The notes under the pieces are model-generated. The model had not been told where the DNA came from. It was given only the letters and a program-made list of their open reading frames with translations, and did no database searches. Source: an uncultured Gammaproteobacteria bacterium (GTDB lineage: Bacteria > Pseudomonadota > Gammaproteobacteria > Poriferisulfidales > GCA-002705445). From it: a stretch of 64,000 bases of DNA. Below are positions 10,465-63,691 of the stretch, piece by piece. Location: assembly GCA_913065025.1 (NCBI GenBank), contig CAJYAP010000003.1, positions 5,876 through 69,875 on the forward strand, in the 5' to 3' direction. The translations under genes and the position numbers were made by a program. The stretch's first letter is position 1, and each line of letters starts with the position of its first letter.

Positions 10465-11020
10465 ATATTTTTCTTTAATTAAGACAAAGCTTTATCTTTT
10501 GTTAATTATTTTTTCATTTGCTGGGCCTTTGATTCTTGCAACATTCATGTATAAGTATAGCGATTTTATCCCTGTTGCAGAACCAAAATCAAATGGCAAT
10601 CTTATTACGCCAGTAATTACGATAACTCAAGAAGAAGATTTTGAAAATATCTTGAGGGATAAGAAATGGACTTTTATGTATGTGTATGAAAACGAAACAT
10701 GTGATCTTATATGTGAGGCAACTTTATATATGATGCAGCAAGTTAGAGAATCTGTAGGGAGAGAAAGATCTAGAATAAAAAATTTATTAATTGTTGAAGA
10801 TAAATTTAATAGTGCTGAGAATATTAATATTATAAGTAAATATAATAAGATTAAAATGTTAGAGGTATTAAATAATAGTTTTTTTGAAAAACTGAAAAAA
10901 AATCATTTATACATAGTGGACCCTTTAGGAAATATTTTTATGTATTATAACAAGGACTTTGACGCAAAGGGACTAAAGAAAGATATTAAAAAATTACTTA
11001 GAATCTCAAGGATTGGTTAA
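10448..11020 (+). CDS. membrane-anchored Sco-like thioredoxin-fold protein (CxxxC), cox-cluster hypothetical
   Basis: 190 aa with an N-terminal TM helix. KKWTFMYVYENETCDLICEATL resembles the Sco1/SenC CxxxC region, and HLYIVDPLGNIFMYY resembles the Sco C-terminal strand but lacks the copper-ligand His. Confidence 0.5.
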   Translation: MGKTVEYFSLIKTKLYLLLIIFSFAGPLILATFMYKYSDFIPVAEPKSNGNLITPVITITQEEDFENILRDKKWTFMYVYENETCDLICEATLYMMQQVRESVGRERSRIKNLLIVEDKFNSAENINIISKYNKIKMLEVLNNSFFEKLKKNHLYIVDPLGNIFMYYNKDFDAKGLKKDIKKLLRISRIG

Positions 11021-11026
11021 ATTAGC

Positions 11027-12052
11027 ATGGTAAAAATTAATTATTATTTATTATTTGTTATAACGATAACTTTAGCAGTCATAACTCTTGGCGCATATGT
11101 AAGACTATCGCATGCAGGACTAGGTTGCCCAGATTGGCCCGGGTGTTATGGGTATTTAGTAGGGGTTCCAGATAATCCATTAGAAATAACTAATGCGGAA
11201 AAAAATTTTGAAGGCTCAAGTGTTGATATCGGTAAAGCTTGGAAAGAAATGATCCACAGATATCTTGCTGGGGCATTAGGAATTTTTATATTTATAATAT
11301 CTTTAATATTCTATAAAAATAATACGCATAAGCTATTTAAGCTATCACTTTTAGTATCATTTTTAGTAATAATGCAAGCAGCACTAGGAATGTTTACGGT
11401 TACTTTACAATTACAACCTATTATTGTCATGATGCATTTAGTTGGGGGATTAACTATTATTACTTTATTGTGGCTTTTATATTTAAGAAACAACATTAAT
11501 AACTATTTTATCGAAAGTAAATCCCTTATAAATATTTCTTTGAAAAAAATAAAAAAACTATCTTATTTTGGATATTTAACTTTAGTGATTTTAATTATAC
11601 AAGTAATGTTAGGTGGATGGACTAGTACTAATTATGCCGCTTTAGCATGCGCTGACTTTCCAAAATGTAATGCAGCATGGTGGCCACAAATGGACTTCTA
11701 TAGCGCTTTTATTGTTGAACTAGCTACAGATTTAAATTATGAATTTGGTAGACTAGATAGCCCAGCAAGAGTCGCGATACACTTTACACATCGAGTATGG
11801 GCTATAATTGTAGCAGCAATGATAATTAGCTTATCTATTTTATCTTACAAAACGATCAAAATGCCTTCTCAAAAAATAATTTCTCTTTTACTTATTTTTT
11901 TCTTATTAGTACAAGTAATATTAGGGATTTTGAATGTGAAAATGGGTTTACCAATATATGTTGCTGTTGCGCATAATGGTAACGCTGCATTGTTATTAAT
12001 GTGTCTAATAACTCAATTATATTTAATAAAAAGAGTTAAAAGTAACTTGTAG
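11027..12052 (+). CDS. ctaA: heme A synthase (COX15/CtaA)
   Basis: 341 aa polytopic membrane protein with an N-terminal GLGCPDWPGC motif and conserved His-containing helices. Confidence 0.9.
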   Translation: MVKINYYLLFVITITLAVITLGAYVRLSHAGLGCPDWPGCYGYLVGVPDNPLEITNAEKNFEGSSVDIGKAWKEMIHRYLAGALGIFIFIISLIFYKNNTHKLFKLSLLVSFLVIMQAALGMFTVTLQLQPIIVMMHLVGGLTIITLLWLLYLRNNINNYFIESKSLINISLKKIKKLSYFGYLTLVILIIQVMLGGWTSTNYAALACADFPKCNAAWWPQMDFYSAFIVELATDLNYEFGRLDSPARVAIHFTHRVWAIIVAAMIISLSILSYKTIKMPSQKIISLLLIFFLLVQVILGILNVKMGLPIYVAVAHNGNAALLLMCLITQLYLIKRVKSNL

Positions 12053-16875: not shown

Positions 16876-18206
16876 TGAATAATAAAATAATCAAAATAAC
16901 ATATTTTTTAATAATTATGACGCTATCAAATTTAACACAAGCTAATATAGAAATATCTCAGTATGAAACAAAAAACGGTATAAAAGTTTTATATACTAAA
17001 GCACAAAATATCCCTATGATTGATATTAAAATTACTTTTGATGCAGGGTCTAATAAAGATGGTGACATTAAAGGTTTATCAATGTTAACTCATAGCTTGC
17101 TAGATGAGGGAACTTCAAAAATGAACTCCGAATCTATTGCTTCAACTTTTGAATCTACAGGAGCAATCTTTAATACTTCTGTTAATAAAGATAAATCATC
17201 TATTTCTTTAAGATCATTAACTGAAAAAAAATATTTGGATCCATCTATAAAAATGTTTTTAAAGATTTTATCTGATAGTGTTTTTCCTCAAAAAGAGATT
17301 AATTTGCAAAAAGATAGAACAATTTCTTCAATAATTGAAGATCAAACGGATCCTAGTGAAATATCTATGAATTTATTTTTTAAAGAAATTTATGGTAATT
17401 ATCCATATGCGTATCCTTCAATAGGCATGAAAAATACTTTGAGTAAAATAAAAAGAAAAGATATTCAAAATTTCTATAGAAATAATATAAATTCTAGAAA
17501 CTCAAAAATTGTAATTGTTTCGTCACTCTCAAATAAAGAAGTTATAAGTTTAGCCGAGAAAATATCTAAGTCACTAAATAATTCAGAATTAAAAAAAGAT
17601 GATGTCTCATCTTCACCAAAAATATTAAAAAATAGCAAAGAAAAATATATTTATAAAAAGTTTAACTCTGAGCAGGCACACATATACATAGGTGGTTTAT
17701 CTATAAAAAGAGGGTCTAAATATCAACTTCCATTATATGTTGGAAATTATATTTTTGGAGGAAGTGGTTTTAGTGCAAGACTTATGCAGGAGTTAAGAGT
17801 AAAAAGAGGTTTAACATATGGAGTTTATAGTTATATATATCCAATGAAAGACGTTGGCCCCTTTGTAATTGGAATTGAAACAAAAGCAGAGCAAGCGCAA
17901 GAGTCCGTGAAATTAATTCACAAAATGATAAAGGAATTTCATAAAAATGGGCCAAGCGATAAAGAATTAAAGCACGCCAAAGAAGCTATAATAAATGGTT
18001 TTCCATTAAGGATTGATAGTAACACTGATATTTTAAATTATTTATCAATGATTAATTACTATAATTTACCACTTGATTATTTAAATACTTTTACAAAGAA
18101 AATATCAAAAATAACTAAAAAAGATATTTTAGAAGCCTTTGAAAAAGAAGTTGACGTCAAGAATTTAGTAACTTTAGTCGTTGGAAATGAAAAAGCAAAA
18201 AAATAG
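16875..18206 (+). CDS. M16 family peptidase, non-catalytic partner
   Basis: 443 aa with M16 architecture and a signal peptide. The HxxEH motif is replaced by LTHSLLDEGT. It abuts the preceding M16 gene. Confidence 0.85.
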   Translation: MNNKIIKITYFLIIMTLSNLTQANIEISQYETKNGIKVLYTKAQNIPMIDIKITFDAGSNKDGDIKGLSMLTHSLLDEGTSKMNSESIASTFESTGAIFNTSVNKDKSSISLRSLTEKKYLDPSIKMFLKILSDSVFPQKEINLQKDRTISSIIEDQTDPSEISMNLFFKEIYGNYPYAYPSIGMKNTLSKIKRKDIQNFYRNNINSRNSKIVIVSSLSNKEVISLAEKISKSLNNSELKKDDVSSSPKILKNSKEKYIYKKFNSEQAHIYIGGLSIKRGSKYQLPLYVGNYIFGGSGFSARLMQELRVKRGLTYGVYSYIYPMKDVGPFVIGIETKAEQAQESVKLIHKMIKEFHKNGPSDKELKHAKEAIINGFPLRIDSNTDILNYLSMINYYNLPLDYLNTFTKKISKITKKDILEAFEKEVDVKNLVTLVVGNEKAKK

Positions 18207-18783
18207 CACAGCAAACTTAAAAGTTAAAATAATCTCAGGTTGCTGGAGAGGAAAAAATATTAATTTTCTCGAAAAAAAAGACCTGAGACCAACAAAAAGT
18301 CAAATAAGAGAAACACTTTTTAACTGGATCCAGTATGATGTTGAAAACTCCTATTGTTTAGATTTATTTTCTGGAAGTGGTGTTCTGGGATTTGAAGCAG
18401 CATCGCGAGGAGCAAAGAAAGTTTTTATGGTTGATAATGATTTAGATGTGGTTAATTGTTTAAATATTCAAAAAAAAAAGTTAAAAGGAGATAATATTTT
18501 TATCTTTAATTCTGATTCAGATGAATTCCTTAAAAATTTTAATGAAAAAGTTAGTTTGATATTTCTTGATCCCCCTTTTACAAAAAATATTCTTGATGAA
18601 ACAATAAAGAGTTTAAGTGTATCAAATAGTCTTATTGATAGGTGCAAGATATATATTGAATTACCACACAATAAGAATTTTACAGTGAACATAAAAACTC
18701 CAGAAAATTGGGAATTACTAAAGAGTAAAAAATCTGGAGATGTCGCTTACTTACTTTTTCAGCATAATTGTTCTATGATATAG
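18181..18783 (+). CDS. rsmD: 16S rRNA (guanine966-N2)-methyltransferase RsmD
   Basis: 200 aa with LDLFSGSGVLGFEA (SAM binding) and the DPPF catalytic motif. It lies directly upstream of coaD, the conserved pairing. Confidence 0.85.
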   Translation: MEMKKQKNSTANLKVKIISGCWRGKNINFLEKKDLRPTKSQIRETLFNWIQYDVENSYCLDLFSGSGVLGFEAASRGAKKVFMVDNDLDVVNCLNIQKKKLKGDNIFIFNSDSDEFLKNFNEKVSLIFLDPPFTKNILDETIKSLSVSNSLIDRCKIYIELPHNKNFTVNIKTPENWELLKSKKSGDVAYLLFQHNCSMI

Positions 18784-56153: not shown

Positions 56154-56348
56154 ATGAACGAAACATATAGAAATGCAGTAGTGCAAATGGAAGAGCAAGG
56201 TGTTCAAGATGAATATATTCTTGGTTGGCAAGGTGGTTTTTTAGGCCATCCACCAAGAGAAGAAACAAGAACAAATGAAGCTTATGATGCAGGCTACGAA
56301 GATGGCCAAGAAAAAAACTTAGCCAATATAGGTGATTGGAAGAAATAG
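56154..56348 (+). CDS. hypothetical acidic small protein
   Basis: 64 aa with a strong SD (GAGGAG at 56144-49) and no recognisable motif. Confidence 0.55.
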   Translation: MNETYRNAVVQMEEQGVQDEYILGWQGGFLGHPPREETRTNEAYDAGYEDGQEKNLANIGDWKK

Positions 56349-56349
56349 A

Positions 56350-56904
56350 TTATTTGTTTACTAGAGAAGCAATTGGTCTTCGCAAAGATAGTAATATTTT
56401 AGGAACCTCTTGATCAATAACATACATTCTTATCCAATTATTATCTAATTCCCCCATATGGGTCATCAAATGGTTCCCAAGTATAATTCTTGATTTATAA
56501 CTTGGTTCCTCGTTATATTCTAGCTCAGAATATTCTCCCATCCGGTCATTTAAAAGATTAATAAATTTAGTCTTAATATTTTCTTTTGGGATTTTTAAAT
56601 CGACCTGGTTAATATTTACTGTTTCATTAAGTTTTTTAGCAATATCTGTTATAAAATTTATTTTTTTTTCTTTATCATAAGATTTGATTTCATTATTTGC
56701 TACATAAATCTGGAAACAAGAAACCTCTTTTAAAATTTCCATTCTTTCGGACCAAGTGTCGGTATCAAAGCCTTCATTTTCTAAATTGAGTAAAGTTTTT
56801 TTTGATATTTTCCAAATACTTACAGCAAGAGCACTAGCAATTTGCCCAACTTGTCTTTTTTTTCCTTTTTGATTCCAACCGCTATGTATTCTTTGTATAC
56901 TCAT
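56350..56904 (-). CDS. hypothetical protein
   Basis: 184 aa soluble protein with no recognisable motif. It is convergent with the 64-aa gene, with 1 nt between the two stops. Confidence 0.6.
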   Translation of the reverse strand: MSIQRIHSGWNQKGKKRQVGQIASALAVSIWKISKKTLLNLENEGFDTDTWSERMEILKEVSCFQIYVANNEIKSYDKEKKINFITDIAKKLNETVNINQVDLKIPKENIKTKFINLLNDRMGEYSELEYNEEPSYKSRIILGNHLMTHMGELDNNWIRMYVIDQEVPKILLSLRRPIASLVNK

Positions 56905-56949
56905 ATTAATATATTTGTTAATTACATATTTTATTATACATCATTACTT

Positions 56950-57522
56950 ATGAGAGAGATAAAACCAAATTCATTTATCTTTGAATTTAATAATGCTTTG
57001 AAAAAGGAAGATTGTAAAAGCATTATAGGTAGATTTGAGGATAATAAAGAAGAACATTATATCGGCAAAATTGGTCAAAATATTTCCGAAGATTTAGATA
57101 TAAAAAAATCTACAGATTTATTTATTAGTGGTAAAGAAATTTGGAAAGATGTTGATAAACTTTTCTTTAGTGCGTTAGCAAAATCATTACATGAGTTTAA
57201 AAATGAAATAGAATTTTTTAAAGGTCCTTTTAAGGATATGGGATATGCTATTCAAAGAACTGATGCTGGGCAATATTATCATTGGCATATAGATGGAGGA
57301 AGTCATGATTTTAGCTATAGGCAACTTGTAGCAATATTTTATTTAAACGATTTAGAAGAGAGTCAGGGTGGCACAACAGATTTCTATCATCAGAATATAA
57401 GTATAACCCCAGAGGCTGGAAAGTTAATTTTATTCCCCCCATTCTGGACTCACAAACATAGAGGTTCAGAAGTTTTATTTAAAGCAAAGTACATTGCGAC
57501 AACATGGATTGTATTTGCTTAA
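56950..57522 (+). CDS. 2OG-Fe(II) oxygenase (prolyl-4-hydroxylase-like)
   Basis: About 190 aa from MREIKPNSF. The facial triad is HWHID ... THKH, and the double-stranded beta-helix strand motif is VAIFYLND ... GGTTDF. Confidence 0.8.
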   Translation: MREIKPNSFIFEFNNALKKEDCKSIIGRFEDNKEEHYIGKIGQNISEDLDIKKSTDLFISGKEIWKDVDKLFFSALAKSLHEFKNEIEFFKGPFKDMGYAIQRTDAGQYYHWHIDGGSHDFSYRQLVAIFYLNDLEESQGGTTDFYHQNISITPEAGKLILFPPFWTHKHRGSEVLFKAKYIATTWIVFA

Positions 57523-57529
57523 AAACTAA

Positions 57530-57850
57530 TTAAGAAAAAGAAGTTTCTTCCATATTACCAGATATATCAATATCTATAATTTTTACGTCTGGCATTTGAT
57601 TTATAATATATGCAGCCATCATGATAGCTGTTTCTTTTTTATTAAGATGAATAGATGTAAATAAACGATCTGCAGCTATTTGACATTTTTGGAATTGACT
57701 TGGGTTATCAACCCAACTTTTGCTCATCTGCCATCCTTTATTCATGTCTGAATCCATTTGAGCAAAAAAGGATTGAGCTTCTGTTACAATTTTCTCTTGA
57801 ATTTTAAGAGGATATTCATTCTCGCCGAGAATGACATTAAGTTCGTACAT
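57530..57850 (-). CDS. hypothetical protein (106 aa), last gene of the dsrA-divergent operon
   Basis: Its ATG lies 3 nt after the stop of the 68-aa gene. No recognisable motif. Confidence 0.6.
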   Translation of the reverse strand: MYELNVILGENEYPLKIQEKIVTEAQSFFAQMDSDMNKGWQMSKSWVDNPSQFQKCQIAADRLFTSIHLNKKETAIMMAAYIINQMPDVKIIDIDISGNMEETSFS

Positions 57851-57853
57851 ATA

Positions 57854-58060
57854 TTATTTTTTAGAGCCTTTCTCTTCATGTGCAAGGTCAACTATATCCA
57901 TAGCTAAATCTCTATACTCTTCTCTAAAACCTGCAATCTCTGAGTCATCATCTGGAGCAAAATATTCAGATGCTTCAACTCCTTGTTCTCTATCCAAAGC
58001 TATGAACTTTTTTTGCATATCCAGTAACTTTTGAATTTTAGCTTGCTTATCTTCACTCAT
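57854..58060 (-). CDS. hypothetical acidic helical protein (68 aa)
   Basis: MSEDKQAKIQKLLDMQKKF... with a predicted helical character. No recognisable motif. Confidence 0.55.
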   Translation of the reverse strand: MSEDKQAKIQKLLDMQKKFIALDREQGVEASEYFAPDDDSEIAGFREEYRDLAMDIVDLAHEEKGSKK

Positions 58061-58143
58061 TTAATCCATCCTTTCAATTTTAACTAAGTTTTAATAATAA
58101 CCTAGTTGTTGATATAAAATCCACTAGTCCAAATTGGGTAGGT

Positions 58144-58488
58144 TTAATACCCGCCTTTTCTTCTGCTTTCAGGCAAGCCAGAAATTCTTCCACCTTGTTT
58201 ACTAGGGTCCCCTGGAAAAAGATCATAAAGAACTTTGGCATCTATTTTTTCACCCCAAAGCTTTTCAAAAAATTTTACTAGTTTTCTCGTATTCGGCTGG
58301 TTCCCAGCATTATTAAAAAATTCATCTCTTAGATGATTTATTACATCCCAATGCCTATCAGTTAATTGTAATTTTTCAATATCAGCTATAGCTTTAGCTA
58401 GGTCTTCAGACCAATCTTCAGCATTAACTAAGTATCCCATTTCTGTTGTCTCTATTTGTTTTCCCGCAATTTCTATTGTTGGCATCAT
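58144..58488 (-). CDS. DsrC/TusE-family protein lacking both C-terminal cysteines
   Basis: 114 aa with a GGGAGG SD. It aligns by eye along its whole length with DsrC (IEIAGKQIETTEMGYL ... LTDRHWDVINHLRDEF ... LYDLFP...KQ). The tail reads QGGRISGLPESRRKGGY instead of QACRFAGLPKPTGCV. Confidence 0.85.
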   Translation of the reverse strand: MMPTIEIAGKQIETTEMGYLVNAEDWSEDLAKAIADIEKLQLTDRHWDVINHLRDEFFNNAGNQPNTRKLVKFFEKLWGEKIDAKVLYDLFPGDPSKQGGRISGLPESRRKGGY

Positions 58489-58510: not shown

Positions 58511-59191
58511 TTATTCACTACTTTTTGAAACAGCTACAGGAGCTATACTTTTGTGAGGTAAAAAGATACCACATCCATATAATTTTCCAATACCTATTCC
58601 GAGCTGTTGTATTTTTATCGAGTCTTTTTTTTCAAGATCTGTTATTAGTAAAGTTTTTCCAATAAGGGTTTTATTAGGAATTTTAATAAAATGTTCCTTC
58701 CCGCACAGCATCTTTTTAACATTTATACCCATAGATATTAAAGATGAATTAACCTCTTGAAGAAACTCTTCTTCGTTTGCATTATTTTCAACAACAACTG
58801 TCCTGCAAAAAAGAGTATCTGTGATAATCAAATTCTTTGTGCTGGGCCTTGAAAGAGTCATCTCATATTTTCCAATTTTAAGCATTTCGCCATCAAGTTT
58901 ATAAAATTCCTTGGAATATTCGACAGGTGTTCTTATGCAAAATCTTGTCCTTTTCGAAAGATATATTTCTGTTTCTGGTCTCTCCCATCCAGCTCCTGAC
59001 TCGGCGCCATATACTGAGTGTATCGCTAAATTATTAATATCTCTTATTTTTGGGAATTTATTAAGAACAGCCTCAAATAAATCATAAGCATGGTCAGATG
59101 AAATCTTATTGCAGTTAACCTTAAATGATACATCAACTATTGCATTATCAGTTTCGTTTGGTTTATTTTGATCATCTTCTTCCCAATACAT
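58511..59191 (-). CDS. Cas6/Cmx6-like RAMP protein, not associated with CRISPR
   Basis: 226 aa. The C-terminal sequence GIGIGKLYGCGIFLPHK exactly fits the Cas6 glycine-rich loop pattern GhG-x5-GhG. The N-terminus MYWEEDD...IVDVSFKVNC..SSDHAYDL resembles what I remember of subtype I-MYXAN Cas6 (Cmx6) family members. No search was run. Confidence 0.6.
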   Translation of the reverse strand: MYWEEDDQNKPNETDNAIVDVSFKVNCNKISSDHAYDLFEAVLNKFPKIRDINNLAIHSVYGAESGAGWERPETEIYLSKRTRFCIRTPVEYSKEFYKLDGEMLKIGKYEMTLSRPSTKNLIITDTLFCRTVVVENNANEEEFLQEVNSSLISMGINVKKMLCGKEHFIKIPNKTLIGKTLLITDLEKKDSIKIQQLGIGIGKLYGCGIFLPHKSIAPVAVSKSSE

Positions 59192-59193
59192 AA

Positions 59194-59385
59194 TTACCTT
59201 TTTGGTGAGGTAAACAGATTTTCAAGATCTGTTTCCCAGTAGTCTGGTGTATCGTCAAAGTTAGGTTTGATGTCTAGTGATAAAAACATTTCACCTTCTT
59301 CAATTTTTTTAGATATAAACTCTTTAAGGTCTTTATAGGATTTCAACTTATATTGTTGAATAAGTATTTCACTCATTGTTAACAT
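59194..59385 (-). CDS. hypothetical acidic small protein (63 aa)
   Basis: GGAG lies 7 nt upstream, inside the end of the TauD-like gene. There are 2 nt between its stop and the next start. No recognisable motif. Confidence 0.55.
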   Translation of the reverse strand: MLTMSEILIQQYKLKSYKDLKEFISKKIEEGEMFLSLDIKPNFDDTPDYWETDLENLFTSPKR

Positions 59386-59389
59386 TTTT

Positions 59390-60271
59390 TTACTCCACTC
59401 TTTTAGAAAATCTTAGTCTTTTAAGCAGTCTTTTATTATTACCATCAACATATTCTTCTCTTTTATGCAGTACGTTATTTGCTAAATAACCCTGATTTTC
59501 TTTCAATAAAAGATTAAAAGTATAATGATTATCTTCCGCTATAAAACTAAAAATAAAATCTTTTATTTTTTTTATTGTATCATTTTTTTTCCATATAATA
59601 TTTTGCTGTCTTGAAGTAAACCTCATGTTTAGAAAGTTTCTTTCATCTATATAAAAAACAGGGCCTTTCACAGAATGACTACCTACAATATTTTTATTTC
59701 CTGGTATCTCCATAATATCGTTTTGCATCAATATATTTATGAACTCAGGATTATGATCTCTCAAGTAAATATATATAATTTCATGATCTAATATTATATT
59801 TTCCCCTCCTCGCTGAGCTGGGTGCTCACAATGCAGTAAGAAAGATTTTATAGCTGAATCTAGCGGGTAGTAGTAACCATCGGTGTGCCAATTTAGCTGT
59901 TTATTTGTATATGGAATATATTCTACATTGGGACTTTTTTCCTTACTTTGATTTTGATTAGTGATATTAGAAATGTCATCTTCATCGGCAAGAAGATTTG
60001 ATACAGAATTTACTAATTTTAATCTAGAACAGAATTTTTTTAGAGATTCGTTTGTTAATTTTGCATCAAATTCATACATTGCAAAATTGTATTTAGTAAC
60101 AGAGTCCTTAAGCAAATTAATTTTATTATTATTTATATCGTTATTTTTAAATTTAATTAAAATTTTTTCTCTCGAAATTGGGTATTGCGCAAGTTTATAG
60201 TCGCGCCATTTTTTATATTCTGTTTGATTTTCGAGTAAAAAAGGAGAGTTCATTATTAGATTGTATGACAT
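59390..60271 (-). CDS. TauD/TfdA-family Fe(II)/2-oxoglutarate dioxygenase
   Basis: 293 aa with LNWHTDGYY (HxD) and a distal His in NNVLHKREEY followed by basic residues, the TauD-like layout. It is the first gene of the operon, 210 nt from dsrA. Confidence 0.75.
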   Translation of the reverse strand: MSYNLIMNSPFLLENQTEYKKWRDYKLAQYPISREKILIKFKNNDINNNKINLLKDSVTKYNFAMYEFDAKLTNESLKKFCSRLKLVNSVSNLLADEDDISNITNQNQSKEKSPNVEYIPYTNKQLNWHTDGYYYPLDSAIKSFLLHCEHPAQRGGENIILDHEIIYIYLRDHNPEFINILMQNDIMEIPGNKNIVGSHSVKGPVFYIDERNFLNMRFTSRQQNIIWKKNDTIKKIKDFIFSFIAEDNHYTFNLLLKENQGYLANNVLHKREEYVDGNNKRLLKRLRFSKRVE

Positions 60272-60481
60272 TTAAGATTAATTTTGATAGGATAATTGTG
60301 AAAATATATTAAATTTATTTAATAAATGTTTGTTACAAGTAATATATCCAATATGGGGTATATAAATGATTCCAAAAGAGATAGATAGGACACCCCAAAA
60401 GAACGATGTCAATAGCAGGAAATAACTCATAAAATAAAATTATCTATAGATAAAAATAATGTAATACAAAGGAGAAAAAGA

Positions 60482-61735
60482 GTGGCTGATAAACATAACA
60501 CCCCTATGTTAGATGAATTAGAGCATGGCCCATGGCCTAGTTTTATATCAGGTATTAAAAGATTAAGAGATCAACACCCAGAAGAGAGAATTTCTAGTAC
60601 AGCAAATTCATTATTAGGTCAGCTCGAACATTCCTACGAAACAAGAAAAGGTTATTGGAAAGGTGGGACAGTCAGTGTATTTGGTTATGGAAGTGGAATT
60701 ATCCCAAGATTTTCCGAAGTAGGTGATGCGTTTCCAGAGTCCAGAGAATTTCATACTCTAAGGGTGCAACCTCCAGCAGGTAATTACTATACTACTGGTA
60801 TGCTAAGACAGCTTGGTGAAAGTTGGGAAAAACATGGTTCTGGCCTCCAAACATTTCATGGTCAAACAGGAAATATAATGTTTATTGGTTCAACAACCGA
60901 AAACACTCAACACTTTTTTGATGAAATTAACGAATACGGATGGGATCTTGGTGGAGCCGGCCCATGTGTTCGAACTGGAATGTGTTGCGTTGGCGCCGCA
61001 AGATGCGAGCAATCTAATATTGACGAAATAAAAATTCATAGAACATTATTAAATAATTTCACAGATGATGTTCATAGACCTGCTTTACCTTATAAATTCA
61101 AATTCAAAGTATCTGGATGCCCAAATGATTGTGTTAACTCCATTGAAAGAGCTGACTGTGCAATTATAGGTACATGGAGAGACGATATGAAAGTCGATCA
61201 ATCAGAGGTTAAGGATTTTGTTGCGAAAAAAGGCAGGAAGTATGTAATCGATAATGTAATTACAAGATGCCCAACAAATTGTTTATCTTTAAAAGACGAT
61301 GATACTTTAGAAGTTGATAATAGAAATTGTGTAAAATGCATGCATTGTTTAAATGTAATGCCAAAAGCATTAAGTCCAGGAGATGATAAAGGCGCAACCG
61401 TCCTTATGGGTGGTAAAAGAACTTTGAAAGTAGGTGACTTAATGGGAACAGTTATAGTTCCATTTATGAAATTAGATACCGAAGAAGACTATGAAAAACT
61501 TACAGAATTAGCTGAAGAAACTATAGATTTTTGGGCTGAGAATGGATTAGAGCATGAGCGTTGTGGAGAAATGATTGAAAGAATAGGGCTTGTGAATTTC
61601 TTGGATGGTATTGGATTAGAAGTTGATCCAAATATGGTTGCGGATCCAACAACAAGTTCATACGTTAGAATGGACGGATGGGATGATGAAGCTGAAAAGT
61701 GGTTCAAGGAAAAATTACAGGCTGCAGAAGCTTAA
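60482..61735 (+). CDS. dsrA: dissimilatory sulfite reductase alpha subunit (oxidative/reverse type)
   Basis: 417 aa with a GTG start after AAGGAG. The N-terminus is TPMLDELEHGPWPSF, the siroheme/4Fe-4S cysteines are CCVGAARCE and SGCPNDC, and a ferredoxin insert is present. Confidence 0.96.
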   Translation: MADKHNTPMLDELEHGPWPSFISGIKRLRDQHPEERISSTANSLLGQLEHSYETRKGYWKGGTVSVFGYGSGIIPRFSEVGDAFPESREFHTLRVQPPAGNYYTTGMLRQLGESWEKHGSGLQTFHGQTGNIMFIGSTTENTQHFFDEINEYGWDLGGAGPCVRTGMCCVGAARCEQSNIDEIKIHRTLLNNFTDDVHRPALPYKFKFKVSGCPNDCVNSIERADCAIIGTWRDDMKVDQSEVKDFVAKKGRKYVIDNVITRCPTNCLSLKDDDTLEVDNRNCVKCMHCLNVMPKALSPGDDKGATVLMGGKRTLKVGDLMGTVIVPFMKLDTEEDYEKLTELAEETIDFWAENGLEHERCGEMIERIGLVNFLDGIGLEVDPNMVADPTTSSYVRMDGWDDEAEKWFKEKLQAAEA

Positions 61736-61766
61736 TTTTTAATAAATTTAAAATAAGGAATTAATA

Positions 61767-62855
61767 ATGTCGGAACAACAAGCAAAACCAGCAAATAGAC
61801 CACCAATAGAAACAGGATGTCCTGATGCATTTCAATATATGCATCCAGTAATGAGAAGGAATTATGGGCAATGGGCATATCATGAAGATCCACGTCCAGG
61901 CGTATTAAAACATGTCGCTCACAGTGGTGATGCTATATGGACAGTTAGAGCTGGAACCCAAAGGATTTTAGATGTCACAACTTTAAATCTGTTATGTGAT
62001 ATTGGAGATAGATATGCTGATGGCTACGTTAGATTTACTATTAGAAGTAACATTGAATACATGATTGACCAAGAATCTAAAGTTGGGCCTTTAATAGTTG
62101 AATTAGAAAAAAATGGATTTGTAGTAGGTGGAACAAAAAACTCTGTAGCAATGATATCTCATACACAGGGATGGTTGCATTGTGATATTCCTGGAACTGA
62201 TGCATCTGGAGTTGTAAAGGCCATGATGGATGAAGTAATTGATGAATTTAAAGGTTGGAATATGCCTAATAGAGTTCATATGACAACATCATGCTGTCAG
62301 ATTAACTGTGGTGGGCAAGGCGACATTGCTATCAATGTTCAGCACACAAAACCGCCAAAAATTAATCATGACTTGGTTTCAAATGTCTGTGAAAGACCTT
62401 CGGTTGTTGCACGCTGCCCAGTAGCCGCTATTAGACCAGCACAGGTGAATGGAAAACCATCTCTAGAAGTTGACGAAAAAAAATGTATTTGTTGTGGAGC
62501 ATGCTATCCACCATGTCCCCCAATGCAGATTAATGATGCGGAGCATACAAAACTTTCAGTATGGGTTGGTGGGAACCATTCTAATGCTAGAGGAAAACCA
62601 TCATTTCAAAAATTAGTTGCAGCTGGTATACCAAACAATCCTCCAAGATGGCCTGAAGCAACTGCAATTGTGAAAAAAATTCTAAGAGCTTATAGAGACG
62701 ATGCAAAGGATTGGGAAAGAATTAGTGATTGGGTTGAAAGAATTGGATGGCCAAGATTCTTCGAGTTAACAGGGCTACCATTTACAAAATTCCATATAAA
62801 CAATTGGAAGGGCGCTAGAAATAGTCTTAATGCATCTACTCATATAAGATTTTAA
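61767..62855 (+). CDS. dsrB: dissimilatory sulfite reductase beta subunit
   Basis: 362 aa with TTSCCQINCGGQGD and the ferredoxin domain CPVAAIRP ... CICCGACYPPCP. Confidence 0.96.
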   Translation: MSEQQAKPANRPPIETGCPDAFQYMHPVMRRNYGQWAYHEDPRPGVLKHVAHSGDAIWTVRAGTQRILDVTTLNLLCDIGDRYADGYVRFTIRSNIEYMIDQESKVGPLIVELEKNGFVVGGTKNSVAMISHTQGWLHCDIPGTDASGVVKAMMDEVIDEFKGWNMPNRVHMTTSCCQINCGGQGDIAINVQHTKPPKINHDLVSNVCERPSVVARCPVAAIRPAQVNGKPSLEVDEKKCICCGACYPPCPPMQINDAEHTKLSVWVGGNHSNARGKPSFQKLVAAGIPNNPPRWPEATAIVKKILRAYRDDAKDWERISDWVERIGWPRFFELTGLPFTKFHINNWKGARNSLNASTHIRF

Positions 62856-62876: not shown

Positions 62877-63269
62877 TTGAAACTAGGAATATTAATTAAT
62901 GAAGGCCCATATCAACATCAAGCGTCTGATACCGCTCTTCAATATGTAAAAGCTGCGATAAAGAAGGGTCATGAAATCTATCGTGTATTCTTTTATAACG
63001 ATGGCGTGAATAATGCTACAAGACTAGCTACACCGCCTCAAGATGATAGAAATATTACAAAAGAATGGTCGGAATTAGCAAAAAATCATAATATAGATTT
63101 GGTTGTTTGCGTCGCTGCTGCACAAAGAAGAGGTATTTTGGACAAAGGTGAAGCAGAAAGAAATGGTAAGGATTCTGATAATATCGAGGAAGGTTTTAGA
63201 ATATCCGGGTTAGGCCAACTTGTTGAAGCTGGTATCCAAGCTGATAGATTAATTACTTTTGGAGATTAA
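62877..63269 (+). CDS. dsrE: sulfurtransferase DsrE
   Basis: 130 aa with a TTG start after GAGGAG. INEGPYQHQASD and the active-site Cys in VVCVAAAQRRG are present. Confidence 0.95.
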   Translation: MKLGILINEGPYQHQASDTALQYVKAAIKKGHEIYRVFFYNDGVNNATRLATPPQDDRNITKEWSELAKNHNIDLVVCVAAAQRRGILDKGEAERNGKDSDNIEEGFRISGLGQLVEAGIQADRLITFGD

Positions 63270-63274
63270 GACTT

Positions 63275-63691
63275 GTGAGCGAAGAAGGAATTGTAAAAAA
63301 ATTTATGTACGTAAATAGAAAAAGTCCTTATGGAACTATTTACGCTTTGGAATCTCTAGAAGTTGTTTTAATAACTGCAGCTTTTGATCAAGATGTAAGT
63401 TTAACTTTTACTGATGATGGTGTTTATCAATTGATGAAAGATCAAAAAACTGATGGTATTGGAATGAAAAACTTTTCATCAACATACTCAGCTTTAGGTG
63501 ATTATGAAATAAAGAAAATTTTTATTGATAAAGAATCTTTAGAAGAAAGGGGTTTATCAGTATCAGATTTACAAGAATTGGTTTGGGAAGATGAAGACGA
63601 AGATTATGCTGAGAAGAGCTCGATTAATTTAGTATCAAGAGCAGAGTTGTCAAATATTATGAGTCAGCAAGACATTGTCATGAGTTTTTAA
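63275..63691 (+). CDS. dsrF: sulfurtransferase subunit DsrF
   Basis: 138 aa with a GTG start and KKFMYVNRKSPYGTIYALESLEVVL. Confidence 0.93.
   Translation: MSEEGIVKKFMYVNRKSPYGTIYALESLEVVLITAAFDQDVSLTFTDDGVYQLMKDQKTDGIGMKNFSSTYSALGDYEIKKIFIDKESLEERGLSVSDLQELVWEDEDEDYAEKSSINLVSRAELSNIMSQQDIVMSF

Follow-up and report, generated by a model that had tools for sequence, protein, structure and literature searches.

What does a Cas6 protein do in a sulfur-oxidation locus that shows no sign of CRISPR? The question is raised by a 64,000-nucleotide stretch of DNA (the window) from an uncultured gammaproteobacterium (contig CAJYAP010000003.1 of assembly GCA_913065025.1), in which a minus-strand gene at 58511-59191 codes for a protein referred to here as Cas6L. 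An original prediction, made from the letters of the DNA, had described it as an orphan Cas6/Cmx6-like protein of the repeat-associated mysterious protein (RAMP) group, and the reading frame is present exactly as it was given (ATG start, 226 amino acids). Cas6L is a genuine homologue of Cas6/Cmx6 by sequence and by fold, and its gene has a constant place in a dsrQ-s63-cas6L operon next to the oxidative dsr genes of sulfur-oxidising Gammaproteobacteria. The answer that we favor, at a probability of roughly 0.55, is that Cas6L is an exapted Cas6 scaffold, without canonical CRISPR RNA (crRNA) cleavage, and that it acts as a binding subunit or an adaptor together with the 63-amino-acid protein s63 and usually with the oxygenase DsrQ.

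The relationship to Cas6 extends along nearly the entire protein. Residues 19-215 match positions 1-191 of the 191 in the Pfam model PF09559 (Cas6) with E=2.6e-54 (184.5 bits; cutoff 26.7), and the NCBIfam model TIGR02807 (cas6_cmx6) is matched at 121.5 bits, above its curated cutoff of 98.85, so the resemblance to Cmx6 noted in the original prediction is correct. A member of a divergent clade (locus L089) reaches 81.6 bits with the same model and falls under the cutoff. When the 66 open reading frames (ORFs) of the window were compared to the PADLOC models, six Cas6 models each matched one ORF, taken to be Cas6L (best E=1.4e-55). The C-terminus, G198-I-G200-IGKLY-G206-C-G208-IFLPHK, fits the pattern GhG-x5-GhG and is the glycine-rich loop of the family, as the original prediction had it.

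The fold leads to the same place. Against solved structures, a profile of 62 homologues matched a single set, namely Cas6 from the Cascade complex of type I-B CRISPR-associated transposons (CAST), over its full length (8fcj_B, E=1.1e-22). An AlphaFold model made from the 62-homologue alignment has a predicted local distance difference test (pLDDT) score of 86.3 and a predicted template modeling (pTM) score of 0.81, and it is poor only at residues 1-13 and 218-226. It was proposed that a predicted structure be compared with those of Cas6 proteins, and in a Foldseek search the model found 8fcj_B and 8fcu_B first (template modeling scores of 0.79-0.84, root-mean-square deviation 1.9 Å), the remaining significant matches all being Cas6, Cse3, or Cas6e. 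The predicted fold consists of two RRM/ferredoxin-like domains and the C-terminal glycine-rich loop. Measured against six close relatives, the ratio of nonsynonymous to synonymous substitution rates (dN/dS) is 0.08-0.11 (approximately 0.09), and by this measure Cas6L is under strong purifying selection and is a functional gene, not a relic.

The CRISPR context that such a protein would suggest is missing. Tandem Repeats Finder (TRF) gave no array-like repeat and a k-mer array scan was empty, so the window holds no CRISPR array, and among its 66 ORFs PADLOC recognized no cas gene beyond Cas6L, confirming the CRISPR-free window of the original prediction. A generic 2-oxoglutarate (2OG) model tagged “CRISPR-associated” was matched by a prolyl-4-hydroxylase (P4H)-like oxygenase. 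Rfam, including the CRISPR direct-repeat (CRISPR-DR) families, had no hit at the gathering threshold, and for the region of 54-64 kb there was none of relevance at E<=5 either. The k-mer scan found an array within 10 kb on either side in none of 84 related loci (0/84), and no cas context adjoins them. Relatives of Cas6L were not found in viral contigs. The positive control was a true Cmx6 (P0324 from Rippkaea orientalis PCC 8801, locus L085), which sits in a TniQ-Cas6-DevT(Cas8)-Cas7-Cas5 locus and has a mini-array of three repeats 3.4 kb downstream.

What surrounds Cas6L instead is a constant set of genes. A motif of its clade, GCGIF[LM]P[HY]K, was scanned in one genome per species and gave 192 genomes. 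The loci examined are the best 80 of these 192, and the counts that follow use only loci with enough flanking sequence. All of the best 80 belong to Gammaproteobacteria labeled as, or related to, sulfur oxidisers, and they include Thiotrichaceae, Cocleimonas, Leucothrix, Sedimenticola, and marine single-cell genomes, as well as the sponge symbionts Poriferihabitaceae, Porisulfidus, and Oxydemutatoraceae. At E<=1e-30 there are 263 clusters (50% identity) among the 1,547 clusters of the family.

In the window, the minus strand carries in a row the genes for the TauD-family oxygenase (DsrQ), s63, Cas6L, a DsrC-family protein, and the small proteins s68 and s106, and the row is divergent from dsrA, dsrB, dsrE, and dsrF, which run on the plus strand from 60482 onward. 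Nearly all examined loci share the order of the TauD-like gene (dsrQ), s63, and cas6L, divergent from dsrABEFHC. A TauD homologue lies upstream on the same strand in 57 of 65 loci, dsrA is divergent in 53 of 56, a DsrC-like gene follows within 3.5 kb downstream in 57 of 71, and s68 is present in 52 of 71. In most loci the gap between the TauD and s63 genes is about -17 to +8 nucleotides and the one between s63 and cas6L about 0 to +8, with some small overlaps of the ORFs. Gaps as tight as these point to a single operon, probably with coupled translation, and the trio is retained at 35-40% protein identity. “Orphan” is half right: there is no CRISPR-Cas context in the window or within 10 kb at the 84 loci, but the gene is not isolated, being the third of a conserved operon.

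The tightest pair within the trio is s63 and Cas6L. In locus L044, it adjoins aroK-aroB, with neither TauD nor dsr, and in L086, the whole trio adjoins rpsF. A hidden Markov model of s63 finds the partner in every locus except those of Poriferihabitaceae and their relatives, L064, and one truncated locus. In the divergent subclade (L089 and L090), the arrangement is kept, with a small protein annotated as DUF6967 and a homologue of the 184-amino-acid protein p184 after Cas6L.

This fixed arrangement bears on another explanation, which is that Cas6L is an ordinary Cas6 that serves a distant CRISPR-Cas locus in trans or a decaying remnant of a locus that was lost. Annotation pipelines do name it a type I-MYXAN Cas6/Cmx6, and many type III loci use a Cas6 supplied in trans (PMC12669027). 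However, the gene keeps its place with dsrQ, s63, and dsr throughout approximately 190 species and down to 35% identity, with no array or cas gene within 10 kb on either side, and a dN/dS of approximately 0.09 is not that of a decaying gene. The residues are also conserved across distant taxa above the expectation for a protein that coevolves with variable repeats. Together with the loss of His50 and the remodeling of the repeat-binding surface described below, these observations make a role in trans, or a remnant, highly improbable.

How far Cas6L has departed from its CRISPR relatives can be read from an alignment of 299 members of its clade (dsr-type) and 100 CRISPR-linked members (CRISPR-type). 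Common to both types are D20, D33, H58, R83, R87, R130, R203, C207, the glycine-rich loop, and F210. At position 50, however, His is found in 100 of 100 CRISPR-type proteins, whereas the dsr-type has Glu, Ala, or Asp and essentially no His among the 299 (Arg in the window). Position 39 is Tyr in 98 of 100 CRISPR-type proteins and Ser, Phe, or Ala in the dsr-type; position 36 is Tyr in 97 of 100 compared to 106 of 299, and the window protein is one that keeps it. In Pyrococcus Cas6, the catalytic residues are Tyr31, His46, and Lys52. Because of their invariance, and because the spacing of Tyr36 and His50 resembles that in Pyrococcus Cas6, His50, Tyr36, and Tyr39 are presumed to be catalytic in CRISPR-linked Cmx6, and Cas6L has probably given up crRNA-type cleavage.

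The charge of the protein core has changed as well. The net charge of the aligned core is +0.9 +- 3.9 in the dsr-type compared to +8.5 +- 3.6 in the CRISPR-type, a loss of approximately eight positive charges, and the mean isoelectric point (pI) is 6.6 compared to 8.9. Six basic positions of the CRISPR-type are lost (202 and 204 in the glycine-rich loop and four others) and five new ones are gained, while the cleft arginines R83, R87, R130, and R203 are retained despite the loss of charge. Among 46 columns that are conserved across the CRISPR-type, the dsr-type keeps no more than 20. The clade has gains of its own as well: W3 in an acidic N-terminal tail (286 of 299), H34, R81, K160, G164, H213-K214, and a 9-residue loop insertion with G68-W69-x-R71-P.

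One could consider that Cas6L is still a structure-specific RNA endonuclease, with a re-wired site (for example, H34, H58, or H213-K214), and that it processes or destabilises a host transcript, most plausibly the mRNA of the dsr or the dsrQ operon, and so controls sulfur oxidation post-transcriptionally, with s63 and DsrQ as modulators. The Cas6 fold and the glycine-rich loop are intact, the four cleft arginines are common to the CRISPR-linked members, and H34 is found in 269 of 299 dsr-type proteins and also in non-CAST members of the CRISPR-type (as DHGY). In addition, the Cas6L gene adjoins the dsr promoter region, and Grimm and colleagues are said to have described post-transcriptional control of dsr in Allochromatium, involving DsrR and DsrS. 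We nevertheless think a surviving nuclease unlikely. The family-invariant His50 is absent, the P0250 subclade, whose gene context is the same, has Tyr or some other residue in place of H34, and the core charge has fallen from +8.5 to +0.9 with the loss of the basic loop residues 202 and 204.

A conserved hairpin was also sought, and none was found in the intergenic regions tested. Hairpins had been proposed in the 83-nucleotide gap at 58061-58143 and in the region 60272-60481, and these are not supported, since the sequences fold no better than their shuffles (z of -0.32, -0.08, and +0.51). RNAalifold on 10 relatives of the first gap gave no consensus structure (-0.47 kcal/mol), no common hairpin was seen in the gaps between Cas6L and the DsrC-like gene in more than 30 lineages, Rfam has no match, and the gaps of dsrA-dsrB-dsrE are too short for a hairpin. 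This negative covers the intergenic regions of the operons; an RNA target that is distant or lies in a coding region is possible. Of the two roles that the original prediction had left side by side, an exapted, non-nuclease one fits the data better than hairpin cleavage, given the absent His and a basic surface that seems largely lost.

The same gap at 58061-58143 holds a block that is conserved in sequence, CCAATTTGGACTAGTGGATTTTAT...AACTAGGTTATNATT, and another clade has a related motif, ATTAGAAT..TCCAATAT, ahead of its DsrC-like gene. Because the block is conserved and yet unstructured, it looks like a promoter or operator, which it probably is, and s68 and s106 may form a separate transcription unit. 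Upstream of dsrA, at 60335-60400 of the window, a palindrome-like motif, (A)TCCC-N2-6-GGGAT or CCCATGGG, recurs in distant lineages, and the window reads ATATCCAATATGGGGTATAT. A second recurring motif is ACAyCCCAAAAGAAC. These motifs may be an operator for a dsr regulator. In the sponge-symbiont locus L070, two intergenic regions (10690-11150 and 17930-18320) carry repeated GC-rich hairpins (GACTCTCCCGCGAGGGGAGAG) on both strands. They were considered as a mini-array and rejected, as they are also found 7 kb away on both strands and are thus dispersed elements resembling repetitive extragenic palindromic (REP) sequences or miniature inverted-repeat transposable elements (MITEs), not specific to Cas6L.

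If Cas6L acts as a subunit, its partners matter. The first gene of the operon codes for DsrQ, whose H129-x-D131...H269 triad and 2OG arginines R281/R285 show a conservation of at least 95% among 65 homologues; because these residues are kept, DsrQ is probably an active Fe/2OG oxygenase. The second codes for s63, which has the conserved motif GE.F..D.KPp.f.DtP..We, placed in a low-confidence loop between helices. The single-sequence model of s63 has three helices (pLDDT 72), and its search of the PDB gave no fold match. The DUF6967 proteins of the divergent subclade (L089, 8783-9001; L090, 8832-9041) are positional equivalents of s63 with a weak EGxxFxxMDhxP-like motif (hhalign probability 13.5%). 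The possibility that s63 and Cas6L are a toxin-antitoxin pair was rejected by reasoning, as they are conserved vertically beside dsr in approximately 190 species, not patchy or mobile, and none were found in viral contigs.

In the clade of Poriferihabitaceae and relatives, the site of s63 is taken by an ORF of 235 amino acids. Such an ORF lies at the s63 site in L001 (9328-10035) and between s63 and Cas6L in L087 (7135-7842), and an extra ORF is also indicated in L036, L041, L043, L049, L066, L074, and L083, mostly by a gap of 680-830 nucleotides between the two genes. It was tried as a Cas6 relative and rejected (hhalign probability 0.1%), and it has no Pfam or NCBIfam family.

Downstream of Cas6L comes a paralogue of DsrC, which matches that family over its full length (PF04358, E=1.3e-30; TIGR03342). 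In approximately 65 loci, its C-terminal arm reads ...PSKQ[GA]x[RK]IxGLPxSxRKGGY, while genuine DsrC at the same loci keeps both CysA and CysB and ends in ...QACK.AGLPKPTGCV. So constrained an arm without cysteines hints at a decoy or a regulator, or at an arm that is modified. The idea that RKGGY is a ThiS/MoaD-like GG terminus, activated by the “ThiF” of L089 and L090, was rejected because that ThiF is TcdA (328.6 bits, cutoff 304), a housekeeping tRNA enzyme. In a permissive PADLOC scan (E<=0.01), the DsrC-like protein also gave a weak match to Csm2, the small subunit of type III-A systems (19 bits, E=3e-4), probably a chance helical similarity. The positions of all of these genes and elements are collected in Table 1.

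Table 1. Genes and sequence elements in and around the Cas6L operon, by position in the window.
Feature	Position	Strand	Remarks
YbiB/TrpD2-like protein, 366 aa	55002-56102	+	Glycosyl transferase family 3/anthranilate phosphoribosyltransferase fold, nucleic-acid-binding branch; conserved neighbor of dsr/dsrQ
s64, 64-aa Alvin_2107-family “globule sulfur oxidation” protein	56154-56348	+	NF049856, 88.2 bits (cutoff 60); neighborhood conserved across lineages
p184, 184-aa protein	56350-56904	-	Conserved in approximately 50 loci; without family in Pfam, NCBIfam, PADLOC
Prolyl-4-hydroxylase-like 2OG-Fe(II) oxygenase	56842-57522	+	Conserved neighbor
s106, 106-aa acidic protein	57530-57850	-	Conserved neighbor without family assignment
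s68, 68-aa acidic protein	57854-58060	-	Conserved downstream of DsrC-like gene; preceded by the conserved unstructured block 58061-58143
DsrC/TusE-family paralogue	58144-58488	-	22 nt downstream of Cas6L; both redox cysteines replaced; invariant RKGGY tail
cas6-like gene (Cas6L)	58511-59191	-	ATG start, 226 aa; CRISPR-independent clade of Cas6/Cmx6 family
Codons of glycine-rich loop, G198-x-G200-x5-G206-C-G208	58568-58600	-	Common with CRISPR-linked Cmx6, near-invariant in Cas6L clade; the PHK that follows (H213, K214) is clade-specific
Codons of ESGAGWERP, residues 64-72	58976-59002	-	Clade-specific loop insertion; G68, W69, R71 invariant; 9-residue gap in CRISPR-linked Cmx6
Codons of acidic N-terminal tail, MYWEEDDQ	59168-59191	-	Clade-specific; W3 in 286/299 members; low model confidence
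s63, 63-aa acidic protein	59194-59385	-	pI 4.65; stop codon 2 nt before Cas6L start; most tightly linked partner
TauD-family Fe(II)/2-oxoglutarate oxygenase (dsrQ)	59390-60271	-	4 nt upstream of s63
dsrQ-dsrA divergent intergenic region	60272-60481		CCC-N(2-6)-GGG palindrome-like motif and CCCAAAAG motif, conserved across lineages
dsrA (60482-61735) and dsrB (61767-62855)	60482-62855	+	Oxidative-type dissimilatory sulfite reductase; divergent from dsrQ operon
dsrE and dsrF	62877-63691	+	dsr operon leaves the window end; continues as dsrHCMKL in related loci

The original prediction had named the DsrC-like protein and the 63-amino-acid protein as the neighbors of Cas6L, and both are there. Their company raises another explanation, namely that Cas6L does not bind RNA at all and is a protein-protein adaptor or a small-molecule subunit, which might present s63 or the RKGGY tail to DsrQ or bind a sulfur metabolite. 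A near-neutral protein with an acidic tail, paired with a small acidic protein and surrounded by many small, acidic, conserved neighbors and two oxygenases, would be at home in such a role, and the new invariant surface motifs are specific to the clade. On the other hand, the most conserved elements, the glycine-rich loop and the cleft arginines, are RNA contacts in other Cas6 proteins. Enzymes of the TauD family usually act on small molecules or on carrier-tethered amino acids, not on folded proteins, which also speaks against an adaptor that presents a protein to DsrQ. A Cas6L that has left RNA behind is thus a minority possibility, on a par with a surviving nuclease.

The exapted scaffold that we favor would work as follows. 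Cas6L would form a complex with s63, the partner with which it occurs most constantly, and usually with DsrQ as well, and in this complex it would recognize the ligand or act as an adaptor. The complex would link a reaction that depends on O2 and 2-oxoglutarate to Dsr-dependent sulfur oxidation, which it would control or assist. The ligand in the cleft could be a conserved RNA that is bound and left uncut, or it could be a protein or a peptide, for example s63 or the tail of the DsrC-like protein. A more ambitious version makes the three proteins an O2/2-oxoglutarate-sensing switch, in which the Cas6 scaffold would bind a conserved host RNA (for example, a transcript of the dsr locus) or the DsrC-like arm and thereby act as a gate on the oxidative Dsr pathway of aerobic sulfur oxidisers. 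This version is speculative, and we hold it to be less likely than either a nuclease or a protein without RNA binding.

Several points weigh against an exapted binding subunit. The catalytic residues of a Cmx6-type Cas6 have, to our knowledge, not been mapped by experiment, and the CRISPR-type set in the alignment is dominated by cyanobacterial CAST proteins of transposon-associated type I-B. H34, H58, and H213 are conserved in the clade and could make up an alternative active site. No parts are better conserved than the glycine-rich loop and the cleft arginines, as would be expected if RNA were still bound. The linkage to TauD and dsr is not universal, as L044, L047, L048, and L086 illustrate, and the interactions of Cas6L with s63 and DsrQ are proposed from gene order and coupling. 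Lastly, the absence of CRISPR covers only the window and 10 kb on either side of the loci.

Beyond the operon, the neighborhood has its own regularities. The role of Cas6L in sulfur oxidation is argued by guilt by association, and s64 is one more neighbor from a sulfur-oxidation family; a Sel1-repeat protein is a further conserved neighbor. In L089 (9684-10232) and L090 (9706-10266), homologues of p184 come directly after Cas6L, and for this reason p184 may belong to the Cas6L module. As listed, with a TTG start, the ORF of the P4H-like oxygenase overlaps p184; it probably begins farther downstream, since the homologues have approximately 190 amino acids. This oxygenase matches the PADLOC profile “2OG, CRISPR-associated” with E=1.7e-17, and the profile might owe its label to a linkage with orphan Cas6 genes of the Cas6L kind. 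Elsewhere among the ORFs of the window, PADLOC also matched mad1, mad2, mad3, and mad8 (methylation-associated defence), MzaA, HEC-02A/B, AriA-like, and methyltransferase models. These lie outside 54-64 kb and may be generic ATPase or methyltransferase matches.

The practical significance begins with a name. In sulfur oxidisers, hundreds of these genes carry the pipeline annotation “type I-MYXAN CRISPR-associated protein Cas6/Cmx6,” which implies a CRISPR system that is undetectable at these loci. The clade offers a clear and widely distributed case of a single Cas protein that has probably been put to use outside defense, of relevance to the evolution of RAMP and Cas6 proteins and to the versatility of their fold. 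It also joins DsrQ, s63, Cas6L, and a DsrC paralogue without cysteines in a single module that can be tested, beside dsrAB, in hosts of ecological importance that include marine AT-rich gammaproteobacteria, sponge symbionts, and Thiotrichaceae. Should the O2/2-oxoglutarate switch be true, a single Cas6 RAMP would for the first time be seen to have entered, independently of CRISPR, the regulation of a core energy-metabolism pathway, and this in globally abundant marine bacteria. Our literature search found no paper on Cmx6, on Cas6 together with DsrC, dsrAB, or sulfite reductase, or on a Cas6-like gene beside dsr, and the reviews of CRISPR exaptation (PMC8730458, PMC12669027) do not list one.

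The oxygenase gene has a history of its own. The tauD-like gene upstream of dsr clusters, mostly those of aerobic sulfur oxidisers, was named dsrQ by Lenk et al. 2012, according to Löffler et al. 2020 (PMC7596348), and Hausmann et al. 2018 list “DsrQ/DsrU (unknown functions)” (PMC6018796). The release of sulfite from sulfonates has been speculated to be its role. The window agrees with these accounts in that a TauD-family gene (59390-60271, minus strand) is divergent from dsrA (60482, plus strand), but the accounts mention the tauD-like gene and not the co-transcribed genes for the 63-amino-acid and Cas6-like proteins. The gene at 58144-58488 is likewise recognizable as a member of the DsrC/TusE/RspA family by its full-length match. 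It differs in having no redox cysteines and in ending with RKGGY instead of PTGCV in approximately 65 loci.

The closest relative of Cas6L among known systems is the Cas6/Cmx6 of types I-B and I-MYXAN (PF09559, TIGR02807; PDB 8FCJ, chain B), with which it shares homology over the full length, the double-RRM fold, and the loop GxG-x5-x-CGhF-P. Unlike that protein, Cas6L has no adjacent cas5, cas7, or cas8, no array, and no TniQ or transposon context, and it sits beside dsr in sulfur-oxidising Gammaproteobacteria. It also lacks His50, does not conserve Tyr36 and Tyr39, has approximately eight fewer net positive charges in its core, and carries in addition the W3 tail, the G-W-x-R-P loop, and H213-K214. 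A precedent for life without an array is the cas5-6-7-8 module of Streptomyces, which is derived from type I-E, is associated with a STAND NTPase, has no adaptation module, and is presumed to be exapted and related to defense (PMC8730458). That module keeps several effector subunits, whereas Cas6L is a single Cas6 homologue in an energy-metabolism neighborhood, in the company of an oxygenase.

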